The notes: generated by a model not told the origin, from the sequence alone. Shown: positions 2,364 to 12,614, counted from the stretch's first letter. The stretch: DNA of 64,000 nt from Nitrospirota bacterium (GCA_963699545.1 CAVOUE010000005.1:448001-512000), one strand, 5' to 3'. Program-made: numbers and translations.

Positions 2364-4265
2364 ATGTCGGAATACGGACAGATCCATAATCGAAGGGACC
2401 GGCCCCAAAAGTCCGGAGGCACATCGGGCACTGATGGGAGAATGCCCCGAGGGGTGCGCCTGCCCTCATTTCTTTCGAAATGGATGCTGCTGTTCTGCGC
2501 ATTCTCTCTCCTCGCAGGGGCGGTTGCCGGGTTCGTCTACTGGAGCATTTCAGACCTCCCTGCCCTTAAATCCCTGGAGGAGTATTCCCCGGCCGAATCC
2601 TCCCTGGTATACTCATCTGACGGCGAGATCCTCGCAGAACTCTACCTCGAAAGAAGGACATTCATCCCCTATTACAAAATCCCCGACCACGTGAAAAAAG
2701 CCTTCATCGCCATAGAGGACGTACGTTTTTACAGTCACCCCGGCGTAGACTTTATCGGCATTCTCAGGGCCCTCTATCAGGACCTCAAGACCAGAAGCAT
2801 TGCCCAGGGCGGGAGCACCATCACGCAGCAGCTTGCAAAAATGGTCTTCCTCAAGCCTGAGAGAAGCGTGAAGCGGAAGTTGAAGGAGGCGGCCATCTCT
2901 ATCCAGATAGAGAAACGCTACACGAAGGACGAGATACTGGGGCTTTACCTGAACCAGGCGTATTTCGGGACGCGCGCCTACGGCATCGAGGCGGCGGCGC
3001 AGACTTACTTTGGCAAGTCAGTGGGTCAGCTCACCGTGGGTGATGCCGCAGTCCTGGCCTCTCTGCCCAAGGCTCCCTCCCAATACTCACCCTTTAGGAA
3101 TCCCGAGAAGGCGAAGGAGAGGAAAACCACGGTACTGAGACTGATGCTGCAGGACAAATTCATCACAAGGGCACAGTACGAAGAGGCAGAAAGCGACCCC
3201 ATGCCGGTAACCCCGCACTACCGTAAATATGAGGCGCCCTATTTTGTCGAGATAGTGAGACAGGAACTGGAGGCGAGATTCAATCATGAACTCTATACCG
3301 CCGGATACAAGATTTACTCCTCCATAGACTCCTCGATGCAGAAGGCGGCGGAGGAGGCCGTGACGAACGGAATCATCGCTGTCGAGAAAAGGGCAAAGAA
3401 GGGGGTGCAGGCCGCGCTCATCGCCGTAGAGATAAAGACCGGCCAGATCAGGTCAATGGTGGGAGGCTCTGACTTCTGGAAAAACCAGTTCAACCGGTCG
3501 ACGCAGGCGCTGCGGCAGCCCGGTTCCGCCTTCAAGCCCTTTGTGTATCTCACGGCCATCGAACACGGGATGACTTCCACTGATACGATACTGGACGCCC
3601 CTATCTCCTTCAAAGGGGCCAGGCCGGGTCACCCATGGAGCCCGAAGAACTATGACGGGAAGTATCATGGCACAGTCACCCTCAAGACCGCCCTTGCAAA
3701 GTCCCTGAATGCCGCCACCGTACGGCTTGCGGACAGGGTGGGAGTCGACAGTATCATCGAGACTGCCCAGAGGCTCGGCATAAGGAGCACCCTCCAGCCG
3801 TATCTTCCCATCGCCCTGGGCGCCTCGGATGTGACCCTCATGGATATGGTGTGTGCGTACAGTGCCTTTGCCACCGGCACTCAGGTGAAGCCCGTGTTCT
3901 ATGAATGGGTGATGAACAAGGACGGAATGCCGGTGAGCGAGATGAAGGAGGAAAGGACCGATATCATATCCCAGGAGGATACGGAGGAGATGAGAAAATT
4001 GCTCCGGGCCGTTGTGGAGGAAGGGACGGCCATGAGGGCTAAGGAACTCAAGAGAACGCTCTACGGAAAGACCGGTACCACGAACGATTACTCAGACGCA
4101 TGGTTCATAGGCTTCGATGACCGTCTTGTGGTGGGTGTCTGGGTGGGAAGGGACGACCACACGCCCATAGGGGTAAAGGAAACAGGCGCCAGGGCGGCTC
4201 TCCCCATATGGATGGAGTTTATGAAAAAAGTGCCTCAACAAACTCTTTCGAATCAAAATCCCTGA
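2364..4265 (+). CDS. Class A penicillin-binding protein (PBP1A family)
   Basis: TM anchor, EDVRFYSHPG, GGSTITQQL, RKLKE, SAFK (SxxK), SLN, KTGT; start uncertain (2364 or 2442). Confidence 0.95.
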   Translation: MSEYGQIHNRRDRPQKSGGTSGTDGRMPRGVRLPSFLSKWMLLFCAFSLLAGAVAGFVYWSISDLPALKSLEEYSPAESSLVYSSDGEILAELYLERRTFIPYYKIPDHVKKAFIAIEDVRFYSHPGVDFIGILRALYQDLKTRSIAQGGSTITQQLAKMVFLKPERSVKRKLKEAAISIQIEKRYTKDEILGLYLNQAYFGTRAYGIEAAAQTYFGKSVGQLTVGDAAVLASLPKAPSQYSPFRNPEKAKERKTTVLRLMLQDKFITRAQYEEAESDPMPVTPHYRKYEAPYFVEIVRQELEARFNHELYTAGYKIYSSIDSSMQKAAEEAVTNGIIAVEKRAKKGVQAALIAVEIKTGQIRSMVGGSDFWKNQFNRSTQALRQPGSAFKPFVYLTAIEHGMTSTDTILDAPISFKGARPGHPWSPKNYDGKYHGTVTLKTALAKSLNAATVRLADRVGVDSIIETAQRLGIRSTLQPYLPIALGASDVTLMDMVCAYSAFATGTQVKPVFYEWVMNKDGMPVSEMKEERTDIISQEDTEEMRKLLRAVVEEGTAMRAKELKRTLYGKTGTTNDYSDAWFIGFDDRLVVGVWVGRDDHTPIGVKETGARAALPIWMEFMKKVPQQTLSNQNP

Positions 4266-5124
4266 GATCTTCTCCTCCCTCGCCAACACCGATGAGACGT
4301 ATGGGTATCCCGAGTTCCTTCTTTATGGCAAATACGATCCCGCCCTTGGCAGTGCCATCCAGCTTCGTGAGGGCGATACCGGTCACTCCCACAGCGCTGT
4401 CAAATATCTCTGCCTGCCTGAGGGCATTCTGTCCTGTGGTGGCGTCCACCACGAGAAGAGTTTCGTGGGGAGCCCCCGGCATGGCTTTGTCGATCACCCT
4501 CCTCACTTTCTTCAGCTCTTCCATGAGCGGACTTTTTGTATGAAGCCTTCCGGCAGTATCGATGATCACCACATCCACTTTCCTGCTCCTGGCTGCGGAA
4601 AGCGAATCAAAGGCGACCGCAGCAGGATCCGAGCCGCTCTGATGTTTCACGATCTGGGCCCCGGTTCTCCTGGACCATATCTCGAGCTGCTCTGCGGCTG
4701 CGGCACGGAACGTGTCACCGGCTGCCAGAAGAACCGATTTCCCTTCAGAGATAAAACGGCCTGCAAGTTTTCCGATGGTGGTGGTCTTCCCGACCCCGTT
4801 CACACCCACAGTGAGGATAACAAAGGGCCTTTCTCCTGATACAACGAGAGGCAGGGACGGCCCGAGCAGCGTCGTCATCTCCTGTTTGAGGAACTCCCTG
4901 ACGTCTTCAGTATTGCGGATCTCGCCCTGCTTCGCCTTGTCCCTGAGGAGATCCACGATCTCCCCTGTGGCCTTGACGCCGACATCCGACGCGATAAGGG
5001 TCTCCTCAAGTTCATCGAGGGTCTCGTCATCGATCGCTCTTCCGGTGAAAAGCGCCTCCACCTTCCCGATGAAGCCCTTCCTCGTTTTTTCAAGTCCTTC
5101 CTTTAACCTGTCAAAAAAACCCAT
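4219..5124 (-). CDS. ftsY: Signal recognition particle receptor FtsY
   Basis: GVNGVGKTTT, DTFRAAA, DTAGR, TKLDGTAKGG; 3' end overlaps the convergent PBP gene by 47 bp. Confidence 0.97.
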   Translation of the reverse strand: MGFFDRLKEGLEKTRKGFIGKVEALFTGRAIDDETLDELEETLIASDVGVKATGEIVDLLRDKAKQGEIRNTEDVREFLKQEMTTLLGPSLPLVVSGERPFVILTVGVNGVGKTTTIGKLAGRFISEGKSVLLAAGDTFRAAAAEQLEIWSRRTGAQIVKHQSGSDPAAVAFDSLSAARSRKVDVVIIDTAGRLHTKSPLMEELKKVRRVIDKAMPGAPHETLLVVDATTGQNALRQAEIFDSAVGVTGIALTKLDGTAKGGIVFAIKKELGIPIRLIGVGEGGEDLRDFDSKEFVEALFS

Positions 5125-5741
5125 TAGCTCTCCTTCTCAAGTAAGATGATGCCATCATAATAACCCTTTGCTTTTTCCTTTTTCCAGTTTAAAGGATTTT
5201 CGATATCCTCTTCCCATCTCACAGAATTGCTGATAACGTACTGTCTGATGCGATTCAGCTGATCTTCGCCCCGGATGACATGTTCATAGTAGTTGCGCTG
5301 CCATAATCGACCCGAGAGTTCGCTGTTGTTCTGATTTATCCATTTTAAGTACTCCGTTGAAACCATTGATTTAAATGCACCCACGACATTCCCTAAGGTA
5401 GGGGCAGGGCTCGCCCCTGCCCTCTTCACCTTTTCATCATCAGGGTTAACAGGGATTTGACCCTCCGCATGCCGGGCAACCGCAAGGGTTGCCCCTACAT
5501 GAATCCATAAAATGCAGTGGATGTGGTTCGGCATTATCACAAACTCATCCAGTTCAATGCTGGAGAACCTTTTGGGCAGATTCCGCCACTGTTCCTCAAT
5601 TATCGACGCGACAATGGCATCTTCAAAAATGCATTCTTTCTTATATGCGCATATCGTGGCAAAATATGCCCCTTTACTGGAATAGTCGTAACCCTTCAAT
5701 CTGATCGAACGGCGATGATGGATTTCAGGATTATATTTCAT
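5124..5741 (-). CDS. REP-associated tyrosine transposase (RAYT, IS200/Y1 HUH family)
   Basis: HHRRSIRLKGYDYS N-terminus, MPNHIH HUH motif, WQRNYYEHVIR...YVISN. Confidence 0.9.
   Translation of the reverse strand: MKYNPEIHHRRSIRLKGYDYSSKGAYFATICAYKKECIFEDAIVASIIEEQWRNLPKRFSSIELDEFVIMPNHIHCILWIHVGATLAVARHAEGQIPVNPDDEKVKRAGASPAPTLGNVVGAFKSMVSTEYLKWINQNNSELSGRLWQRNYYEHVIRGEDQLNRIRQYVISNSVRWEEDIENPLNWKKEKAKGYYDGIILLEKES
5398..5498. repeat. Inverted pair of GTAG-type REP palindromes inside the RAYT gene
   Basis: GTAGGGGCAGGGCTCGCCCCTGCCC at 5398 and GGGCAACCGCAAGGGTTGCCCCTAC ending 5498. Confidence 0.75.
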
Positions 5742-5831
5742 CTTCCCCCACTGTCTTACAAGAAACGGGGCAGAAAGACATTTCCTGGCAAATTGTCGGG
5801 GGCTTTTCTTGCGGGTTTCTTTATCCCAAGC

Positions 5832-5927
5832 CTATACATACAAGCGGGATTTTCTCCTGCGGCTGTAAGACTCGTAGTCTTCTTCAGGTTCAGCTATCCT
5901 GCGGGTATAAACAAGGTTATAGCTCAC
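5832..5927 (-). pseudogene. Truncated RelE/ParE-like toxin start fused to unrelated sequence
   Basis: GTG overlaps the antitoxin stop; MSYNLVYTRR resembles a RelE N-terminus; stops after 31 aa. Confidence 0.5.
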
Positions 5928-6121
5928 TCTCCAAAAAGCTCTTTATGTGATTTTGTCCTGCCTGTTTTATATTCGGCTCTTGCCTCCTTGATACTTTGAA
6001 GATAATCAGGGGAAGTCATGGCAAGCAAATCTTCAATAAAAGCCTCTCTTTCATATTTCTTCATTTTCTTAACAGCTCCGATAATATCGTCTGATGAAAT
6101 AGGCACTTTTACTTCTATCAT
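5924..6121 (-). CDS. Small putative antitoxin
   Basis: ~65 aa, C-terminal SIKEARAEYKTGRTKSHKELF typical of RelE-partner antitoxins; GGAGGTG RBS. Confidence 0.65.
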   Translation of the reverse strand: MIEVKVPISSDDIIGAVKKMKKYEREAFIEDLLAMTSPDYLQSIKEARAEYKTGRTKSHKELFGE

Positions 6122-6155
6122 GAATAGCACCTCCCTCTAAGTGTTATTTTAACAT

Positions 6156-6233
6156 TCATTCCTTCCCCGCCACAATCTCAATCTCCTCATCGGTCAAACC
6201 ATACAATATGCAAACTATCTCATCTATCAGTTT
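6156..6233 (-). repeat. Remnant 3' end of type IIG-like RM gene, copy 1 (KLIDEIVCILYGLTDEEIEIVAGKE*)
   Basis: Manual translation; contains GAGATTGAGATTGTGG shared with 6799-6818 and 7871-7890. Confidence 0.75.
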
Positions 6234-6262
6234 GACGTTTCTGTTTGGTCCTATATTATCGT

Positions 6263-6454
6263 TTACTGCGGGTCTGGAATTCCAAGCTGTCTGCAAATCT
6301 TCATCGCCAAGAGATCGGCGATATCTGTGTGTCTTGGAATTGTGGTTGATTTATCCGTACTGGCAAGATTTATATAGCGGGAGTGCTTTGCACCTTCTCT
6401 CAAAAGAACACATCCATGGCGTTCCAGGTGCCTGATCAGCTCCTTTCTCTTCAT
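6263..6454 (-). CDS. hicA: HicA family toxin
   Basis: MKRKELIRHLERHGC...REGAKHS...TIPRH...ICRQLGI. Confidence 0.9.
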   Translation of the reverse strand: MKRKELIRHLERHGCVLLREGAKHSRYINLASTDKSTTIPRHTDIADLLAMKICRQLGIPDPQ

Positions 6455-6651
6455 ACCTCAATTTCTTCCAGCACGACCTCACGTTTTGGCAGGGAAGAAA
6501 TATCAACCGGTTTCTGCATTTCACGCACGGCATCGATCAGGTTTTCCTTCGCCTCTTCAATCGTTTTTCCCTGAGTGAGCGCCCCCGGAACATCATCGGC
6601 CCACGCCACCCACCACTTGCCGTCTTTGACAAAAGTGGCTTTTATCTTCAT
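6451..6651 (-). CDS. hicB: HicB family antitoxin (short, no DNA-binding domain)
   Basis: WWVAWADDVPGALTQGKTIEEAKENLIDA; overlaps hicA by ATGA. Confidence 0.9.
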   Translation of the reverse strand: MKIKATFVKDGKWWVAWADDVPGALTQGKTIEEAKENLIDAVREMQKPVDISSLPKREVVLEEIEV

Positions 6652-6785
6652 AGCTTACCTCCTTTGAATCCAACTCCTTTTCTCAACGGCCTTTCCCGCC
6701 ATTTCACCGTCACAGAGGCTGTGCCGCTGTGGGCAAGAGACCGGACCTCCGAAAAGCCTTCCTGAGTTATTATATAACACTTTTA

Positions 6786-6955
6786 TCACTTTACCCCTCC
6801 CTCCACAATCTCAATCTCTTCCTGTGTGAGGTCATAGAGCCTATATACTATCTGGTCTATCAGATTATCTGTTGCTTTTATCTTCTCCTTCAACGGCTCA
6901 AGAACGGCACTGCTCTTTATGAAATGTTTCTCCAATAATTCCTGAGTCTTTCGAC
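6786..6955 (-). repeat. Remnant 3' end of type IIG-like RM gene, copy 2 (...LKEKIKATDNLIDQIVYRLYDLTQEEIEIVEGGVK*)
   Basis: Manual translation, ~55 codons with no in-frame start; IDxxVYxLYxLTxEEIxIVE is the common C-terminus of Eco57I/TaqI-like fused RM enzymes. Confidence 0.8.
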
Positions 6956-7018
6956 CCGGCCTTCAATTCCTCTTCAACCCACCTTGTCGTTCCCTGAAAA
7001 CTCATGTTGTTTCCTCTC

Positions 7019-7846
7019 CTATGATGCTTCCGAAAGTCTTTCCATCCATATTCCGTTCAAATACGACAAATCTCCCGCATCAGCGTCATGGAGCGCCTTC
7101 AGGTACCGCTTCTTCCCTTGAGGGTCAACTGACGCAGTCTCAGCGGTCGGAAGCCTTAGCCTGAAAAGTATTGCAGACAATAAAATCCTGCCGACACGGC
7201 CATTGAAATCCTTAAACGGATGAATCCACTGAAACCGCCAGTCGGCATAGGCAAGAGTCTCTGCAAATTTTTCAATGTCCCTCTTTTGCAGGGCCCCTGT
7301 GAGCCGAACGGCAAGATCGTCGCAATACAAGCGCATGTGAACAGGGACTTCGAAATATGGCGGAGGGATATGTGAGCCTACCTGGACATTCACATCTCTG
7401 AACCTTCCCGCCCAGTCAGGGAACAATGAGCCTGCTATGTCGCTGTGAAGTTTGCATATCCACTCCGGGGTAATGTGAATATCTTCAGGAATCCCATTAG
7501 TGATCTGCTCCACGCTTATTGCGACGGATACGGCGAGGATTTCTGCTACTTCAGAATATGTCTTTATACCCTGCGCTGTTTCAAAATAGCGGGTTGAATC
7601 TATCGGACGTGTGCTGCCTTCTCCCTTTCGAGGAGCTCCTTCAGGCGGCTCATACTCACTGGCTCCTTCTCGAACTCCATGGACTTCACCACCCAGTCCA
7701 GTATCTTCTCCTGATATGCCTTCCTGAGCACGTTTATATCTGCGTGACTTTCCTGCCACTTTTCGAGCCTTTGCTGGGCCTTCTTTATCTCTGCCTTTGT
7801 CATCTTGTTCTTCCTTGCTTTTATTTTGACATTTATTAGTTTTCAT
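7019..7846 (-). CDS. Fic/DOC family protein (true start uncertain)
   Basis: Fic motif HPFKDFNGRVGR; first ~80 codons overlap the 7600-7803 ORF in another frame. Confidence 0.85.
   Translation of the reverse strand: MKTNKCQNKSKEEQDDKGRDKEGPAKARKVAGKSRRYKRAQEGISGEDTGLGGEVHGVREGASEYEPPEGAPRKGEGSTRPIDSTRYFETAQGIKTYSEVAEILAVSVAISVEQITNGIPEDIHITPEWICKLHSDIAGSLFPDWAGRFRDVNVQVGSHIPPPYFEVPVHMRLYCDDLAVRLTGALQKRDIEKFAETLAYADWRFQWIHPFKDFNGRVGRILLSAILFRLRLPTAETASVDPQGKKRYLKALHDADAGDLSYLNGIWMERLSEAS
7600..7803 (-). CDS. Small protein upstream of Fic, putative antitoxin
   Basis: 67 aa, charged and helical; VVKSMEFEKE loosely resembles the (S/T)xxxE(G/N) Fic-inhibitory helix. Confidence 0.6.
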   Translation of the reverse strand: MTKAEIKKAQQRLEKWQESHADINVLRKAYQEKILDWVVKSMEFEKEPVSMSRLKELLEREKAAHVR

Positions 7847-7870
7847 TGCAATAGTTTCGATTTTCTTTTC

Positions 7871-7890
7871 CCCTCCACAATCTCAATCTC
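7871..7890 (-). repeat. Copy 3 of the GAGATTGAGATTGTGGAGGG motif, overlapping the S-subunit stop
   Basis: 20/20 identical to 6799-6818. Confidence 0.85.
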
Positions 7891-9271
7891 CCAATATCAT
7901 CCCCTCAACCCGATGTTTGGCTTCCTCAATGATCCTTGTCGCCTCTGCCTTCAGCCTTTCGGCTTCAGAGATTCGTCTCTTAACTTCATCGGAGATTTTG
8001 TTCTGGATTTCGAGAGGGGGAATGGGGACTAGAAAATTCTCTATTGTCGATATTGTTATATTCCCTTGTATTGCCCCTATCTTTTCTCTTTCTGTAAAAA
8101 GCTTTGAAATCTTGTTGTTCAGCCATATTGAAACATATTCTTTATTAACTTCATCATTAACACAAAATTTAATCATAAACGAGCCAAAGGCAAACCCATC
8201 TGCCTCTTTTGGAACGACTGCAACAATTCCAACGGAACCGCTTCTGGAAACCAATAAATCCCCTTCATAAACAAACCCACTTCCAATTTCTTTTCTCTTT
8301 GATTCTTCAAGATGGGCTATTTCTGTTAGGTCTATCTTGTTAGGTTCTATATTTAATATTCTAAGCAGAGGTATTCCTTCATCAACATAAACATTCTTAA
8401 TAGAAACACCATAATGGATTTTTGTTACAAATTCTTTCAGCTTCGCTATCCTGTATTTCCCTTTCTCTAATGCCTTCTCAACTTCTTCAAACTTCGGCTG
8501 ATAATACGCAACATCCGCTCTGCTGTTCTGCACTTCTGCAGAGGTGACAACAAAACACATCTCGTCCTCAACCTCCGGAAGTTTTATGCCCAGGTCATCA
8601 AGCACATAACCATCAATCGAATCCAATAGCCTCTGTGCCTTAACTTTTTTTTGTTTCTTCTGGTTGTACGCCGATTGCATGATATCAACGATTTGGGTTT
8701 GGATTTCTATAGATGGAATGGGAATTAATATCTTCTTTACTTCTTCCGTGTTTAATTCGGGGCGAGTAGATTTGTTTCCCCATCTATAAATTTGCTGACT
8801 ACCAACATCAGAAAGCAAATAAGTCTTAAGGTAATATGGATTAACCTCTGGCTTGCAGGTGATTGTTACTAAGTGAGAAGTTATATTCCCCTCTATTAGT
8901 CGGTCAGGAAAGACCGCCGAGTATCCCAAAATTGCTCCTGCCTTAGTTAAAAGAACATCATTTGGCAAGACTCTACTTCTTTTTAATTCGGCGTGTTTTT
9001 CCGGAGATATTTTCACTAGATTATTTTCTGAGATTTCTCCAGTTTTAACATTTGAAACCCTTACAACCGGAATGCCTTCTGTAGTATAGTCTTCGACTTT
9101 TAATTGTGTTCCAAATGGCCCATCGACAATTCTACTGCATATATCACCAATTCTCTTTATTTCATACTTAGATTTTTGTAGCTTATGAATTAACTGCAGA
9201 TATTTAGGGTCATAAAACAGAGGGTCTATTCGTCCCTCGATCTCGTTACTCAAAACCGTAAAACACTGCAT
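7883..9271 (-). CDS. hsdS: Restriction-modification specificity (S) subunit, two TRDs
   Basis: DGPFGTQLK, IPIPSIEIQTQIV and VPIPPLEIQNKI repeats, two-TRD architecture; AT-rich. Confidence 0.9.
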   Translation of the reverse strand: MQCFTVLSNEIEGRIDPLFYDPKYLQLIHKLQKSKYEIKRIGDICSRIVDGPFGTQLKVEDYTTEGIPVVRVSNVKTGEISENNLVKISPEKHAELKRSRVLPNDVLLTKAGAILGYSAVFPDRLIEGNITSHLVTITCKPEVNPYYLKTYLLSDVGSQQIYRWGNKSTRPELNTEEVKKILIPIPSIEIQTQIVDIMQSAYNQKKQKKVKAQRLLDSIDGYVLDDLGIKLPEVEDEMCFVVTSAEVQNSRADVAYYQPKFEEVEKALEKGKYRIAKLKEFVTKIHYGVSIKNVYVDEGIPLLRILNIEPNKIDLTEIAHLEESKRKEIGSGFVYEGDLLVSRSGSVGIVAVVPKEADGFAFGSFMIKFCVNDEVNKEYVSIWLNNKISKLFTEREKIGAIQGNITISTIENFLVPIPPLEIQNKISDEVKRRISEAERLKAEATRIIEEAKHRVEGMILGD

Positions 9272-9272
9272 C

Positions 9273-11096
9273 TTATTTACCCTTCAAGAACTTTTTATAT
9301 TCCGCATAAATCGTATTGAAATCATTTTCTGGGACTTCCCTGCCAGTAGCGTCGTACCCGATGTGGTCTGCTATTGCCATGAAGATTGGATACTTTGCTA
9401 ATCTTTCGTTTTCGCCTTTCCTTCTCAGAAACACAAGCGAAGATTTAACGCCCGCGCCGTAATGGGTGAAGGCGAATTGAGGTAAGGAGACGACTGCTAA
9501 TATCTGGCACTTTTCCATAATAAAGTTCCGCACATATTGCAAAGAAGAATTGGTCAAAATCCCGTCAGGCAATACGATGCCGATTCTGCCGGTCTTCGGT
9601 TTCACAAAATCAATACACCGCTCAATGAACATTACCTCTGTTTTCTGATTCTTCTTACCTTTACCGAGGTCGTATTTCTCCAAATAGTTTTTCTCTGTTG
9701 ATTTGACAGACGCGCCGAATGGGGGATTGGTAAGGATGATGTCGAAATAATCCTTCTTGAAGCCTTTATGTATATCCGTAATCTCTTTAACATCTCTTAG
9801 CGAATCCGTGCTGATCACGTTTGTATGTCCGTCATCGTGTATGATCATGTTCATCTTGCAGACCCTTGCGATCTGGTCGTTAATCTCAATGCCATAAAGA
9901 TTATTCATGGCGAAATTATGCCAGTGCTCCCATGCCTCTTTTTCATCATAATTATCTTCAGCAAACTTTTTCACCAAATCCATTGCGTTCAGTAGAAAGC
10001 CGCCGCTTCCACAGGCGGGGTCTAAGATCAAATCAGTCCTTTCAGGATTGAGCATCTTCACGGCAAATTCAACAATCGGGCGTGGCGTAAAGAATTGCCC
10101 CATCTTGCCTTTAAAAAAGTCCTGCATAAACCGCTCGAATGCAACCCCTTTGGTGTCCAGGTCAATCTTGTTTATAGCCAGCTCTTGCAGGTGCTCAACC
10201 ACATTGTAGACAATCTTTGCGTCTAATCGGATATCTTCCCTGAAAACTTCCGAGTCTTCTTTCTTTGCCTTCTGATATATGGAATCAATCCTATCGTAAA
10301 CCTCGTCTGCCGATTCATGAGTGCCGATCTGGAATTTGTACGTATCGCCCTTCTTCGTGCCTTTTTCGTCTTTCAGTTTACAGAACAGAAGCTTTGATAC
10401 TTCGTCAAAAGCTGTTGTAGGCGCGAGCCTGCCGCCCTGCCAGACAGTATCGTGGGATTTCTCCAGTGCCCTGATGAGTTCTTCTCTGGAGACGATCTTT
10501 AAATCCCTTGCCGGATCGCCCTTGACGAATCTGTATTTCGGCGTTTTTCCATATCTTACAGAAACATCAGAGATTACATTTCGTTCTCTTTCGCTAGGCT
10601 TGAATCCTTCAACATCAAATACTGTCTTTGTAGTGCCAGCGACAACAGCTGCGAACTTTGACCTTAAACTGTTTGCATTTCCAAAGGCTTGTTCAATAGC
10701 CTGCTTGAATTCAGCATCTGAAATGCCATCTTTTTTACACTCAACAACTAAATAAGGTTTCTTTAGCTCCTCGTCTTCATAAATAACAATATCAGCTCTG
10801 TCTTCGGGCTTTCTTCTCGGAACAATGACCTCTAAATCTATCTTTTTACTCGGGTACTCATAGTCCAGAACCAGCTCTGCAAAATAGGAGGCCCTTACTT
10901 TTTCCTCTGGTTTTTTGTAACCCGACGTATAGTCTCGGCTGCAGTGATAGGTGATTTTGGAGTTGTCGTCAGATAAGGAAATGAAACCTTTCTCGATGGC
11001 TCTCTGGATATTTCTCTCAAAGATTGATTCGTGATTGGTTGTTTTTTGTCGTGTCACATCTCTTTCAGGCATACCGTAAGGTATCAGGATTTCCAC
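9273..11096 (-). CDS. Fused HsdR-N-like endonuclease / N6-adenine methyltransferase (type IIB/IIG-like)
   Basis: N-terminal RADIV...VVECK PD-(D/E)xK motif, GQFFTPR, ILDPACGSGGFL, NPPF; start may be ATG at 11072. Confidence 0.9.
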   Translation of the reverse strand: MEILIPYGMPERDVTRQKTTNHESIFERNIQRAIEKGFISLSDDNSKITYHCSRDYTSGYKKPEEKVRASYFAELVLDYEYPSKKIDLEVIVPRRKPEDRADIVIYEDEELKKPYLVVECKKDGISDAEFKQAIEQAFGNANSLRSKFAAVVAGTTKTVFDVEGFKPSERERNVISDVSVRYGKTPKYRFVKGDPARDLKIVSREELIRALEKSHDTVWQGGRLAPTTAFDEVSKLLFCKLKDEKGTKKGDTYKFQIGTHESADEVYDRIDSIYQKAKKEDSEVFREDIRLDAKIVYNVVEHLQELAINKIDLDTKGVAFERFMQDFFKGKMGQFFTPRPIVEFAVKMLNPERTDLILDPACGSGGFLLNAMDLVKKFAEDNYDEKEAWEHWHNFAMNNLYGIEINDQIARVCKMNMIIHDDGHTNVISTDSLRDVKEITDIHKGFKKDYFDIILTNPPFGASVKSTEKNYLEKYDLGKGKKNQKTEVMFIERCIDFVKPKTGRIGIVLPDGILTNSSLQYVRNFIMEKCQILAVVSLPQFAFTHYGAGVKSSLVFLRRKGENERLAKYPIFMAIADHIGYDATGREVPENDFNTIYAEYKKFLKGK

Positions 11097-11129
11097 TATT
11101 TTTCAAGTAACGCTTGATATAATACCCCC

Positions 11130-12614
11130 ATGAATTCTTATGCCCGTCTTATTCCCCGGCTAAACGGTGGAGAGATTGAGGAGAAGTTCTCCTATTATCT
11201 CGACCTCGTAAAGAAAGGGGTCGCCGGTTTCATCGTGTTCGGCGGAGAGCTTGAGACAGTCCGGGCGAGACTGGCAGAGCTTCAGGCAGCTTCTCATTAT
11301 CCGCTCATCATCGCCTCTGACCTGGAGCAGGGGCTGGGTCAGCAGATAGAAGGCGGCACGGTTTTCCCTCCTGCGATGGCGATCGCGTCTGCAATCACGC
11401 CCCCGTCGCCCCCCCTTGCCAAGGGGGGGAATGAGAGGGGGGTGAGTTCCAAGTTAAACCTACTGAGAAAAACATTCAAGGCTATTGCGCTTGAGGCCCG
11501 GTATGCCGGAATCAATACGATATTCGCCCCTGTTCTGGATATCAATACGAACCCGGATAATCCTATCATCGCCACGAGGGCATTCGGCGAAGACCCCGCA
11601 ACCGTCTCCTTTTTTGGGTGCGAGATGATCAAAGTGCTGCAGCGCAACGGGATCATCGCGTGCGGGAAACACTTTCCCGGACACGGCGATACAGAGGTCG
11701 ACTCACATATCAGCCTCCCTGTCGTCAGGAAGGGTCTCCATTCCCTGGAGCAGAACGAACTCGTCCCCTTTAAGAAAGCGGTCGGCGAGGGAGTGGACAT
11801 GATAATGCTCGGCCATCTGAGTGTCCCCGCCCTTGACCCTTCAGAAAGGCCCGCGTCCCTTTCAGATAAGGCGGTCGCGTACCTGAGGGACAGAATGGAG
11901 TTCGGTGGAGCAATTATTACCGATGCGATGAACATGGGAGGGATTGGTCGGTATACGGAGAAAGAGGCATCCCTTATGGCCCTCAACGCGGGTGTTGACA
12001 TCATCCTCCATCCCTCAGACCCCGATGCCGTGGCAGCGTATCTGTTGGAAAAGAATTGCTTCACGAGTAAGACCACATCCTTGTCATTCCCCGGCTTGAC
12101 CGGGGAATCCAGAAACGCTCTGGATGCCCGATTAAGAACTTCGGGCATGACATATGAAGAAATTGATTTCGCCTCACACCAGAGGCTTTCTGATGAGCTT
12201 GCGGGCATGGCTGTCACTATAGAAGGGAAAAGTGATCTGAGGCTAACGAAGCCTTTCATGATCATCCTGAAGGAGGACAAGGTCGAGAGGGGCGGGCACT
12301 TTGCGAATGCATTGAAGAAGAGATACGCGGGTTTTCGTTATTGCTCCGTCATGCCCGGAGATGAGATACCATGGTCTGCACTTCCGAGGGGCCATGACCT
12401 TTTGGTCGGCGTGTTCTCACAGGTGAAGGCGTGGAAGGGTCAGACTGGCGCATGGGTTCGAAGAGCAGTTGAAAGCCTCGATGGCAGGGCAAGGCTTTTC
12501 ATATCCTTCGGGAACCCCTATGTCCTCAGGAACGTGAGGGATGCCGCCAGGATATACGCCTATTGGGATTCCCGGTCAGCCCAGGAGTCAGTGGCCGAAA
12601 GACTGCTGATGTAG
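11130..12614 (+). CDS. nagZ: Glycoside hydrolase family 3, beta-N-acetylhexosaminidase
   Basis: APVLDIN, KHFPGHGDTEVDSH, IITDAMNM. Confidence 0.9.
   Translation: MNSYARLIPRLNGGEIEEKFSYYLDLVKKGVAGFIVFGGELETVRARLAELQAASHYPLIIASDLEQGLGQQIEGGTVFPPAMAIASAITPPSPPLAKGGNERGVSSKLNLLRKTFKAIALEARYAGINTIFAPVLDINTNPDNPIIATRAFGEDPATVSFFGCEMIKVLQRNGIIACGKHFPGHGDTEVDSHISLPVVRKGLHSLEQNELVPFKKAVGEGVDMIMLGHLSVPALDPSERPASLSDKAVAYLRDRMEFGGAIITDAMNMGGIGRYTEKEASLMALNAGVDIILHPSDPDAVAAYLLEKNCFTSKTTSLSFPGLTGESRNALDARLRTSGMTYEEIDFASHQRLSDELAGMAVTIEGKSDLRLTKPFMIILKEDKVERGGHFANALKKRYAGFRYCSVMPGDEIPWSALPRGHDLLVGVFSQVKAWKGQTGAWVRRAVESLDGRARLFISFGNPYVLRNVRDAARIYAYWDSRSAQESVAERLLM
11395..11445. repeat. GC-rich palindromic element translated in frame inside nagZ (ITPPSPPLAKGGNERGV)
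   Basis: CCCCCCCTT-GCC-AAGGGGGGG hairpin within outer TCAC...GTGA. Confidence 0.65.
12082..12152. repeat. 71-bp palindromic element translated in frame inside nagZ (SFPGLTGESRNALDARLRTSGMT)
   Basis: TGTCAT...ATGACA termini, inner hairpins ATTCCCCGG/CCGGGGAAT and ATGCCCGA/TCGGGCAT. Confidence 0.7.

Follow-up and report, generated by a model that had tools for sequence, protein, structure and literature searches.

A conserved block at the 3' end of restriction-modification genes marks the junctions of toxin-antitoxin cassette arrays in Nitrospirota and other bacteria

The 3' end of one family of restriction-modification (RM) genes is repeated in a 64-kb stretch of Nitrospirota DNA (GCA_963699545.1, CAVOUE010000005.1:448001-512000), here called the window, where each copy leads into a different module of toxin-antitoxin (TA) genes. 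The repeated element is a junction block of about 25-30 nucleotides (nt), roughly rGAGATTGAGATTGTGGAGGGGAArrrrTrA, and it is the last ten codons and the stop codon of a family of large single-chain RM genes of type IIG (Eco57I-like). All coordinates are those of the window, which is positions 448001-512000 of contig C5 in the genome G000, a 3.04-Mb assembly of 13 contigs that is 87% complete; the genomes of relatives are labelled G001 and so on, and loci with copies of the block L018 and so on. The feature is real and general, and it is best filed with orphan-module or cassette arrays, with a junction that is unusually sharp and widely conserved. On balance, the sequence comparisons favour the view that the block is a junction at which cassettes are gained, displaced and lost, homology-driven exchange at the restriction-gene tail plus the block being the likeliest mechanism.

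The preliminary description of the window had reported a motif, the core of the block, three times on the minus strand, with two copies ending orphan frames, the third overlapping the stop codon of a specificity (S) subunit gene with an abrupt onset of similarity, and a different co-oriented two-gene module after each copy. All these points were borne out. The 20-mer GAGATTGAGATTGTGG(A/C)GGG has exact matches on that strand at 6166-6185, 6799-6818 and 7871-7890 (copies 2, 1 and 3, with spacings of 633 and 1072 nt), where 0.01 matches would be expected by chance and none of 100 shuffles gave three or more. With up to one mismatch allowed, the 16-mer core is found in the entire assembly at just these three places; the core of copy 2 differs at one position (A to C). 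The orphan frames close with ...IDQIVYRLYDLTQEEIEIVEGGVK (6786-6935) and ...IDEIVCILYGLTDEEIEIVAGKE (6156-6296), while copy 3 overlaps the S-subunit stop (...ATA TTG GGA GAT TGA) and resembles the other copies from 1 nt ahead of GAGATTGAG. In the coding direction the array consists of a 607-residue (aa) RM subunit, the S subunit, a 67-aa open reading frame (ORF) with a Fic gene, tail 1 with block 1, a HicB-like gene with HicA, tail 2 with block 2, a 68-aa ORF, composite stumps, a gene for a REP-associated tyrosine transposase (RAYT) and ftsY; nagZ precedes it on the opposite strand. The three modules are therefore a small ORF plus Fic, HicB/HicA, and an antitoxin plus a ParE/RelE stump, as judged from Pfam matches for Fic and HicA and from a ParE homologue at locus L029. 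The last of them had been described as a truncated RelE-like gene. The ParE/RelE stump is indeed there, but the stretch is composite, with a RelB-like end and the start of a RelE joined on.

The nucleotides of the block are conserved beyond what the protein demands, as had been suspected. A degenerate pattern, in which nothing but the amino acids EEIEIVEG is prescribed, was run on 317 genomes of the same order and found 37 sites in 32 of them, whereas the reversed pattern found none. The identical 20-mer is present at 20 of the 37 sites, against an expected fraction of 0.0024 derived from codon usage in long ORFs of G000 (GAG 0.54, ATT 0.21, GTG 0.35), and ATT is used at 31 and 29 of the 37 sites against its background of 0.21. 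The glutamate codon just ahead of the block varies freely (22 GAG, 15 GAA) and the following six codons are nearly fixed. In a collection with one genome per species the exact 20-mer occurs in 84 stretches; among the 80 listed, the titles (counted by hand, with some overlapping rows) name Nitrospirae, Nitrospirota, Thermodesulfovibrio-type bacteria or Nitrospira in 46 cases, Nitrospinota in nine, Brocadia, Scalindua or Brocadiaceae in five and "Deltaproteobacteria" in five.

By alignment, the orphan tails of the window are genuine fragments of the C-terminal region of an Eco57I-like enzyme, since both match tail ORFs of relatives. In G012, an RM ORF longer than 1238 aa continues into the small ORF + Fic module, and a 155-aa ORF ending in ...LIDQIVYKLYGLSPEEIEIVESF follows the Fic stop. 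The same tail ORF stands after Fic in G009 and G017 (166-187 aa; 155-190 aa across the three genomes). Tail 1 is this C-terminal ORF minus about 236 nt internally, with the junction near 6960/6959 in the alignment, while tail 2 matches the end of the tail ORF of G009 at 90% identity. Intact genes with this ending measure 1086-1223 aa in relatives. The absence from the window of a full gene with this tail, noted at the outset, extends to the assembly. A six-frame scan of the genome for peptides of the L[YF]xL[TS]xxE[IV]x[IV][IV] type returned only the two orphans, neither within a long gene, and the sole Eco57I-domain gene above the family cut-off is the RM subunit of the island itself; the 87%-complete assembly thus holds no full-length gene with this tail, and type IIG genes ending in LYGLTxEEIEIVEG are found intact, at more than 1000 aa, in relatives.

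Orphan tails followed by TA genes are found elsewhere too, as the preliminary description had anticipated. The 37 EEIEIVEG sites comprise 23 in frames of 12-128 aa, which are orphans, four in tail ORFs of 173-197 aa and ten in ORFs that either reach at least 1086 aa or run off the contig. When up to three mismatches are allowed, the order contains 68 copies of the block at 40 loci, on a single strand in each locus and up to five per locus, and the loci from all phyla contain 112 copies. The open stretch upstream and in frame is shorter than 100 codons in 46/68 copies of the order and 84/112 of the all-phyla loci, and reaches at least 400 codons in 10/68 and 16/112, respectively; the orphan tails ahead of cassettes measure 9-76 codons. 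Copies in other loci are spaced by 260-6246 nt, with co-oriented short cassettes between them. Pfam analysis of 105 downstream ORFs revealed TA families such as HicA/HicB-like, nucleotidyltransferase with HepT/HEPN (MNT/HepT), ParE/RelE, HigB, PIN, Zeta, DUF433 with DUF5615, DUF2283, BrnT, PemK and Phd, and also larger defence-type genes (UvrD-like helicase, Piwi, nSTAND3, KAP NTPase, AAA_15/DUF3696, DUF3800, HNH, YhcG, HD and Lon-like). A TA family pair follows 31 of the 66 evaluable copies (a manual tally that leaves out two copies at contig ends), and most of the remaining copies are followed by defence-like genes.

Two features of individual loci can be added. At L023 (G022:C38, 3820-5856) a block copy is followed by a 678-aa gene with a Piwi domain (prokaryotic Argonaute-like). 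Many copies of the block, at L025, L029-L032, L038, L042, L045, L049 and others, lie no more than a few hundred bases from where a contig ends; breaks in the assembly at these repeats, or at arrays that vary between strains, would have this effect.

The positions at which similarity begins and ends identify the block as a seam. The 68 sites were compared all against all, with 400 nt upstream and 1600 nt downstream of each, and alignments in register were kept. Similarities that come from upstream, that is, from the tail, stop at +17 to +33 from the block start, and those of the downstream cassettes start at -2 to -12 for most pairs and at -21 to -58 for four listed pairs. For instance, the cassette of copy 2 in G000 matches L029 from -3 to +287, and L050 matches L051 from -4 to +589. 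In the 20 of the 68 copies whose left flank fails the test for a tail, conservation sets in at about -2 and has faded by about +30. These other left flanks include the S-gene tail (G000, G002, G009 and L091), a 45-nt element, here "class 2", and eight or more other contexts. Left and right flanks are also reshuffled. The flanks of 151 deduplicated copies fall into 68 left and 114 right clusters; 21 right clusters are joined to two or more left clusters (maximum seven), 17 left clusters to two or more right ones, and two pairs of left clusters show all four combinations. The DUF2283 cassette occurs in seven copies with seven different left flanks. A search of about 1 kb upstream of six homologues of the window cassettes outside arrays (HicBA, antitoxin, small ORF + Fic), with up to five mismatches, found the block at none of them (0/6), which rules it out as the TA genes' own promoter.

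The class 2 element, of about 45 nt, consists roughly of an A-rich part plus GGGACAGGyACATTATCy....GGGCAGArGGCAG and abuts the left edge of the block in 21 copies, including those at L071 (732, 1542), L037 (297, 1102, 4477), L046 (3116), L062, L066, L096, L114, L122 and others. It is combined with at least eight different downstream cassettes, and some copies can be read as a mini-ORF, MKRKKGTGTLSRGQK. Rfam contains no match to it, and class 2 plus block shows no conserved RNA structure (consensus energy -0.42 kcal/mol, one covarying pair). Short tandem units (cagaagtg...) make up a third left flank that recurs; it abuts the block, is combined with at least two different cassettes and is found at L062 (2501), L066 (2219) and L029 (101).

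Within arrays, the intact or long restriction ORF and the orphan that follows it have tail and block in common, with an identity of 80-98%. These repeats measure 72-190 nt overall; in L055, for example, 138 nt at 97.8% flank a 0.6-kb cassette, and other cases are 156 nt at 86.5% (L040), 190 nt at 80.5% (L084) and 142 nt at 81.7% (L089). On the right they always end between +20 and +36, whereas on the left the edge is found anywhere from -45 to -155. A fixed core site alone would not leave such a footprint; it is that of integration by homology, Campbell-type or through C-terminal displacement. Elsewhere in the window array there are deletion junctions of the microhomology type.

The array of the window lies in an island that close relatives lack. 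Matches to G001, of the same genus, end at 5137 and restart at 11115 with 146 bp between them, and the gaps between ftsY and nagZ, computed from alignment coordinates, measure 48 bp in G013, 44 in G030, 84 in G040 and G020, 243 in G019, 255 in G012 and 327 in G014. Since the ftsY and nagZ matches are nearly adjacent in relatives, 5138-11114 is inserted DNA, about 6 kb long and poorer in GC (0.38-0.49) than the flanks (0.52-0.57). Other relatives carry other cassette sets in the same interval, with breakpoints at the motif, as expected from the earlier proposal. In G002, also of the same genus, nagZ is followed by about 14 codons of S-gene tail, the block, a RelB-like gene, a RelE with a broken frame and then ftsY, and similarity to G000 is confined to 7867-7910 (S tail, block and 4 nt) and 5803-5901 (the RelBE remnant). 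The G009 interval is split over two contigs. It contains BrnT/BrnA between duplicated nagZ 5' ends, a ParE pair, a restriction gene cut down to its first ~50 and last ~47 codons with a block, a PIN pair and an orphan S tail with block. There follow the small ORF + Fic cassette of the window, at 90% identity, an intact tail ORF of 187 aa with its block, an antitoxin gene and, finally, ftsY. The junction between S tail and block thus recurs as an orphan in both genomes. In another metagenome, the Fic cassette of a contig with a likeness of 85-95% is separated by about 110 nt from a block that RAYT follows directly, and a second short contig has an S tail behind Fic. A RAYT remnant stands beside ftsY in G014. 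At L018 (G009:C187, 1185-1478 and from 2124 onward), the duplication of the nagZ 5' end around BrnT/BrnA resembles an insertion with a long target duplication at the other edge of the hot spot.

A mechanism can be proposed on this basis. DNA composed of tail, block and cassette would recombine through short homology with a resident tail or block copy, by one of two routes, Campbell-type integration of a circle or C-terminal displacement, and the resident tail with its cassette would be pushed downstream as an orphan. Repeated rounds would stack cassettes, and recombination between copies, together with microhomology deletions, would remove them again, while addictive TA pairs could help orphans to persist. 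In the window, a two-subunit restriction system whose S gene ends in the block would head a Fic/HicBA/ParE-type array that ends in RelBE remnants and RAYT. The block could moreover carry expression signals, TTGAGA or TTGTGG doubling as a -35 box in some cassettes and GGAGG as a ribosome-binding site for a gene that begins no more than about 15 nt further on; this role, plus selection on cassettes for a matching handle, would keep its nucleotides constant. The block, the conservation of its synonymous sites, the positions of the junctions, the reshuffling of modules and the content of the cassettes are shown by the sequences; we infer that the joining is done by recombination through homology and not by a dedicated enzyme, and that the block acts as a signal for expression.

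With respect to expression, a start codon (of an ORF of at least 50 aa) lies no more than 15 nt past the block end in 39 of 153 copies and often overlaps the tail stop as ATGA, and there the sequence predicts that GGAGG would act as the ribosome-binding site. A -10 hexamer (5/6 or better) is located 16-18 nt after TTGAGA or TTGTGG in 25 of the 153 copies, against a mean of 7.7 in control windows. The interpretation of the consensus as a -35 box, 17 nt and a -10 box was discarded as fitting a minority of copies only. In the window, a consensus promoter scan found no strong site at the three block copies, so that the AT-rich, promoter-like spacer of the preliminary description is only partly borne out.

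Several points weigh against exchange by homology at the block. An identity of 20-30 bp is short for RecA-type recombination, and no recombination event has been seen directly; one sequencing run, with 7% of the sampled words, gave contigs of a relative with a different arrangement. The cluster counts depend on the thresholds, and the homologous S-tail flanks of G000 and G009 were split into different clusters. Many sites are near contig ends and some "orphans" may be cut genes, although frames running off the contig were counted apart. The sites with the EEIEIVEG pattern are related by descent or transfer, so that the binomial figure overstates their independence, and its background comes from G000 alone; the abrupt onset of constraint at the block does not depend on that figure and stands despite the kinship of the sites. 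Recognisable use of the block as ribosome-binding site or -35 box is restricted to about 40% of the copies and no window copy scores as a promoter, and for this reason a function in expression alone is not sufficient to account for the conservation. The proposal that the RM 3' end is a recombination or attachment site at which cassettes are stacked and swapped is nevertheless supported by the comparison of intervals, the orphan tails and the synonymous sites, with short-homology recombination as the likeliest mechanism.

A further difficulty is the precision with which left flanks meet the block: at least ten unrelated ones join it no further than 1-6 nt from its edge. This is tighter than random deletion would give, and is what a site-specific enzyme or the terminus of an element would produce; it makes a dedicated site-specific system a serious rival, which we consider possible although not probable. 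The block would then be the attachment or cleavage site of a cassette-moving enzyme in an integron-like device, one candidate being RAYT, an HUH tyrosine transposase that is found repeatedly at the distal end of arrays and would act in trans on single-stranded DNA. Besides the sharpness of both block edges, the single orientation of the block throughout every array is consistent with such a system, as is the proximity of RAYT genes. In L042/L077 and L052 such a gene starts 6 nt past the block, the distance being 108-1017 nt in L119, L124 and L041, and in the contig of the relative mentioned above the block directly precedes RAYT. RAYT homologues (E 1e-10 or better) are present in 15/32 motif-bearing genomes against 74/285 others (manual cross-tabulation), and REP-like palindromes lie 8-45 nt upstream of the block in several orphan tails. 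However, the block shows no dyad symmetry and no useful fold, fitting neither the cores of tyrosine or serine recombinases nor HUH hairpins. The 140-nt stretches around the three window copies form no long attC- or REP-like hairpin on either strand (-1.3 to -11.4 kcal/mol, z +1.4 to -2.6 against shuffled sequences), and no known RNA family was detected at the window array (E up to 1) or in nine other array loci (E up to 0.1). The long duplications of the tail differ in length, as expected from homology and not from a fixed core site. As had been stated for the integrase, the window contains no PF00589 tyrosine recombinase; the genome has hits on C10, C3, C6 and at C5:305144-305652 and C5:404532-405008, the nearest gene being about 49 kb from the array. 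RAYT is ruled out as a necessary partner, since 17 of the 32 motif genomes have no homologue at that threshold, including the array-bearing G009, G106 and G186 (completeness 56% to 100%). RAYT is here regarded as cargo or a possible agent, not a requirement.

A broader proposal can be put forward tentatively, namely that the block might be the attachment site of an unrecognised system for the exchange of TA and anti-phage genes, integron-like in function and without an integrase. Its site in the last RM codons would have stayed letter-perfect across at least four phyla because matching cassettes spread, and it would be driven either by an enzyme in trans (RAYT or another) or by an unusually efficient short-homology pathway.

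It is rather unlikely that no special recombination is involved, and that RM genes often precede TA genes, their islands having decayed and their tails having been kept for the ribosome-binding site or promoter of an addictive module. The GGAGG and -35-like hexamers with start codons or -10 boxes at the right distance, in the numbers given above, would agree with this explanation, and so would the varying length of the tail remnants and the internal deletions and fused stumps of the array. Decay leaves unexplained, however, that more than ten unrelated cassette families start at one block that their homologues outside arrays lack, that left and right flanks are combined reticulately, that the S-gene tail and the class 2 element meet the block at the same point, and that near-identical tail duplications surround single cassettes.

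An ordinary integron remnant, that is, an integrase-less attC cluster (CALIN), is highly improbable: the cassettes are short, co-oriented and repeat-bounded, and TA and defence cassettes are reported to be typical of chromosomal integrons (10.1101/2024.07.02.601686; PMC11023631), but the DNA between cassettes forms no extended imperfect hairpin when folded, the conserved element is a non-palindromic coding block of 25-30 nt and not a pair of inverse core sites, and a tyrosine recombinase is lacking in the window. The label "integron-like" of the preliminary description therefore fits the behaviour of the array and not its machinery.

Different known systems can be compared with exchange at the tail and block. 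A search of open-access papers and bioRxiv preprints gave no description of restriction-gene tails that delimit TA cassettes. By analogy, the closest known pattern would be that of the cdiA/rhs orphan arrays; in behaviour it would be that of integron cassette arrays and in footprint that of tandem islands at tRNA gene ends. Behind cdiA and rhs genes, "C-terminal displacement" gives rise to orphan toxin-immunity arrays. There as here, a coding piece of the main gene is repeated before each displaced module and provides the homology for swapping, the array lies beside the main gene, and older modules become distal orphans; the fragments of the main gene ahead of each module correspond here to the orphan tails of 9-76 codons and to the duplications of tail and block downstream of intact genes. 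In cdiA and rhs, however, the repeat lies 5' of the variable toxin domain and in frame with it, so that swapping alters the main protein, whereas here it is the extreme 3' end, the cassettes are separate operons after the tail stop and the restriction enzyme is unaltered. In addition, the 25-30-nt core is here identical at synonymous sites across phyla.

Integrons have a core motif of the GTTRRRY type and attC sites that are imperfect palindromes of 57-141 nt, with inverse core sites, which fold as hairpins; CALIN are such clusters without an integrase. The arrays described here resemble integrons and CALIN in their short, co-oriented, exchangeable cassettes, rich in TA and defence genes and bounded by a repeated site at which new combinations arise. 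They differ in having no IntI, attC hairpin or GTTRRRY-type core; their site is coding sequence of another gene, and many cassettes have their own leader. Tandem islands at the 3' ends of tRNA and tmRNA genes are well established. Integration at the 3' end restores the gene and displaces a 3' fragment, and serial events leave direct repeats of the 3' end between islands, which is the likeness. Those islands, unlike the units of 0.6-3 kb without a recombinase gene found here, are of kilobase size, carry their own integrase and target a fixed housekeeping RNA gene instead of a mobile restriction gene.

RM units can insert with long target duplications, and the "minimal mobile elements" of Helicobacter and Neisseria are exchanged by flanking homology. 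TA islets, according to PMC13617665, integrate at core genes on their flanks by homologous recombination. In all these cases, small units of defence or addiction come and go at a fixed spot without a mobility gene of their own. The target duplications have a counterpart in the duplicated nagZ 5' end of G009. The homology lies in flanking core genes there, but here in a portable block of 25-30 nt and a restriction-gene tail inside the island. A REP/RAYT system consists of a RAYT gene between its palindromic REP sequences, which are numerous in the genome; the island has a RAYT gene with REP-like hairpins in and near it, but the block is non-palindromic, does not occur in inverted pairs and has just three copies in the genome.

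The fast turnover of defence islands is well known, but the entry and exit of small systems without mobility genes is mostly unexplained. The block offers a concrete and testable handle common to RM genes and to more than ten families of TA and defence cassettes, whose exchange can be read from genomes. If the proposal is correct, it would explain the clustering of restriction and TA genes, and the block could be used to look for new defence cassettes in Nitrospirota, Nitrospinota, anammox bacteria and others, any gene after it being a candidate. It would also be a case of selection on the synonymous sites of one gene for the benefit of its neighbours.

The features of the window are collected in Table 1.

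Table 1. Genes, blocks and remnants of the island and its flanks (window coordinates)
Feature	Position	Strand	Evidence and remarks
nagZ-like glycoside hydrolase family 3 gene	11130..12614	+	PF00933 E 3.8e-67; conserved flank; homology with relatives restarts at ~11115
Inserted island, ~5,977 bp	5138..11114	.	Absent from G001 of the same genus
RM subunit, 607 aa	9273..11096	-	N-terminal HSDR_N_2 nuclease-like part plus N6-adenine methylase/Eco57I; PF02384 E 1e-45, PF07669 E 4e-16, PF13588 E 5e-15
Specificity (S) subunit, 462 aa	7883..9271	-	PF01420 E 1.3e-22, two Methylase_S stretches; last two codons and stop from block copy 3
Block copy 3 (core 7871-7890)	7865..7891	-	Junction of S gene and Fic cassette
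67-aa ORF, candidate Fic antitoxin	7600..7803	-	Kept with Fic in G009, G012 and G017; role inferred from position
Fic-domain gene, listed ORF 275 aa, start uncertain	7019..7846	-	PF02661 E 1.3e-14, residues 125-227
Orphan tail 1	6786..7005	-	Internal-deletion derivative of the restriction-enzyme C-terminal ORF found after Fic in G009, G012 and G017
Block copy 1 (core 6799-6818)	6793..6819	-	Sequence match
HicB-like antitoxin gene, 66 aa	6451..6651	-	PF08972 E 1.5e-5
HicA toxin gene, 63 aa	6263..6454	-	PF07927 E 1.2e-9
Orphan tail 2	6156..6296	-	~25 recognisable codons of the restriction-enzyme C-terminus, starting 17 nt past the HicA stop
Block copy 2 (core 6166-6185)	6160..6186	-	Sequence match
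68-aa antitoxin-like ORF of a ParE/RelE pair	5924..6130	-	Likeness to the L029 cassette
Composite remnant	5803..5927	-	ParE/RelE stump 5927-5901; RelB-like C-terminal 22 codons 5900-5832; start of RelE partner
RAYT gene, 205 aa, distal island member	5124..5741	-	PF01797 E 3e-7; NCBIfam REP_Tyr_transpos E 1.4e-19
ftsY gene, conserved flank	4219..5124	-	PF00448 E 3e-75; matched in relatives

The Fic protein has the active-site stretch HPFKDFNGR, and its NCBIfam match, "mobile mystery protein B" (E 1.6e-8), is below the cut-off. Class I Fic proteins of the VbhT/VbhA type have an upstream antitoxin whose inhibitory helix carries the motif (S/T)xxxE(G/N). The 67-aa ORF, for which neither Pfam nor NCBIfam has a family, carries SMEFEK, whose last position departs from this motif. 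The 5' part of the 275-aa Fic ORF overlaps the 67-aa ORF in another frame. The true start of Fic is uncertain because its frame contains no ATG, GTG or TTG from 7846 to about 7510; the TGA stop of the S gene lies in the same frame, 36 nt away (7846-7885). In G012 (L019, 3273-6989) the restriction ORF is open through the small-ORF region into Fic.

The HicA (PF07927) and HicB-like (PF08972, DUF1902) matches are above their cut-offs, the match to HicB_lk_antitox being weak. The two genes overlap by 4 nt and form a HicAB pair, with a toxin domain and an adjacent small antitoxin. The same pair follows a block in G053, G141 and G222; it is bounded by its own ribosome-binding site and its own stop, and the leaders and the following tails differ among the four loci. 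The cassette of the 68-aa ORF, which has no Pfam family, is 92% identical to that of L029 over 290 nt, from 3 nt before the block. In L029 the antitoxin is followed by an intact toxin gene (ParE_toxin, E 5e-16), whereas in the window nine N-terminal codons of the ParE/RelE toxin remain, fused to other remnants, and the pair is not intact. The composite remnant is 89% like the RelB-RelE locus that adjoins ftsY in G002, where RelB is intact and RelE has a stop within its frame.

The nearest NCBIfam families of the RM and S subunits are MAD2 of MADS (methylation-associated defence system; 312 bits against a cut-off of 720) and MAD5 (136 bits against 400), respectively. Identity with MADS was rejected, both scores being far below the cut-offs; other mad genes were not searched for.

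The REP-like palindromes near the block read CCTGTCTGCGTGC....GCACGCAGGCAGG or GGGCAGGCACAGAGGCGCTGCCCCTAC and are located at L025 (111 and 1653), L042 (290), L028 (4504), L053 (4504), L057, L132 and L134. The RAYT ORF of the window itself holds two inverted GC-rich REP-like hairpins, at 5398-5422 and 5474-5498 (GTAG + stem ... stem + CTAC), which fall in ...VGATLAVARHAEGQ...RAGASPAPT...; the transposase gene looks as though it had received a REP doublet in frame.

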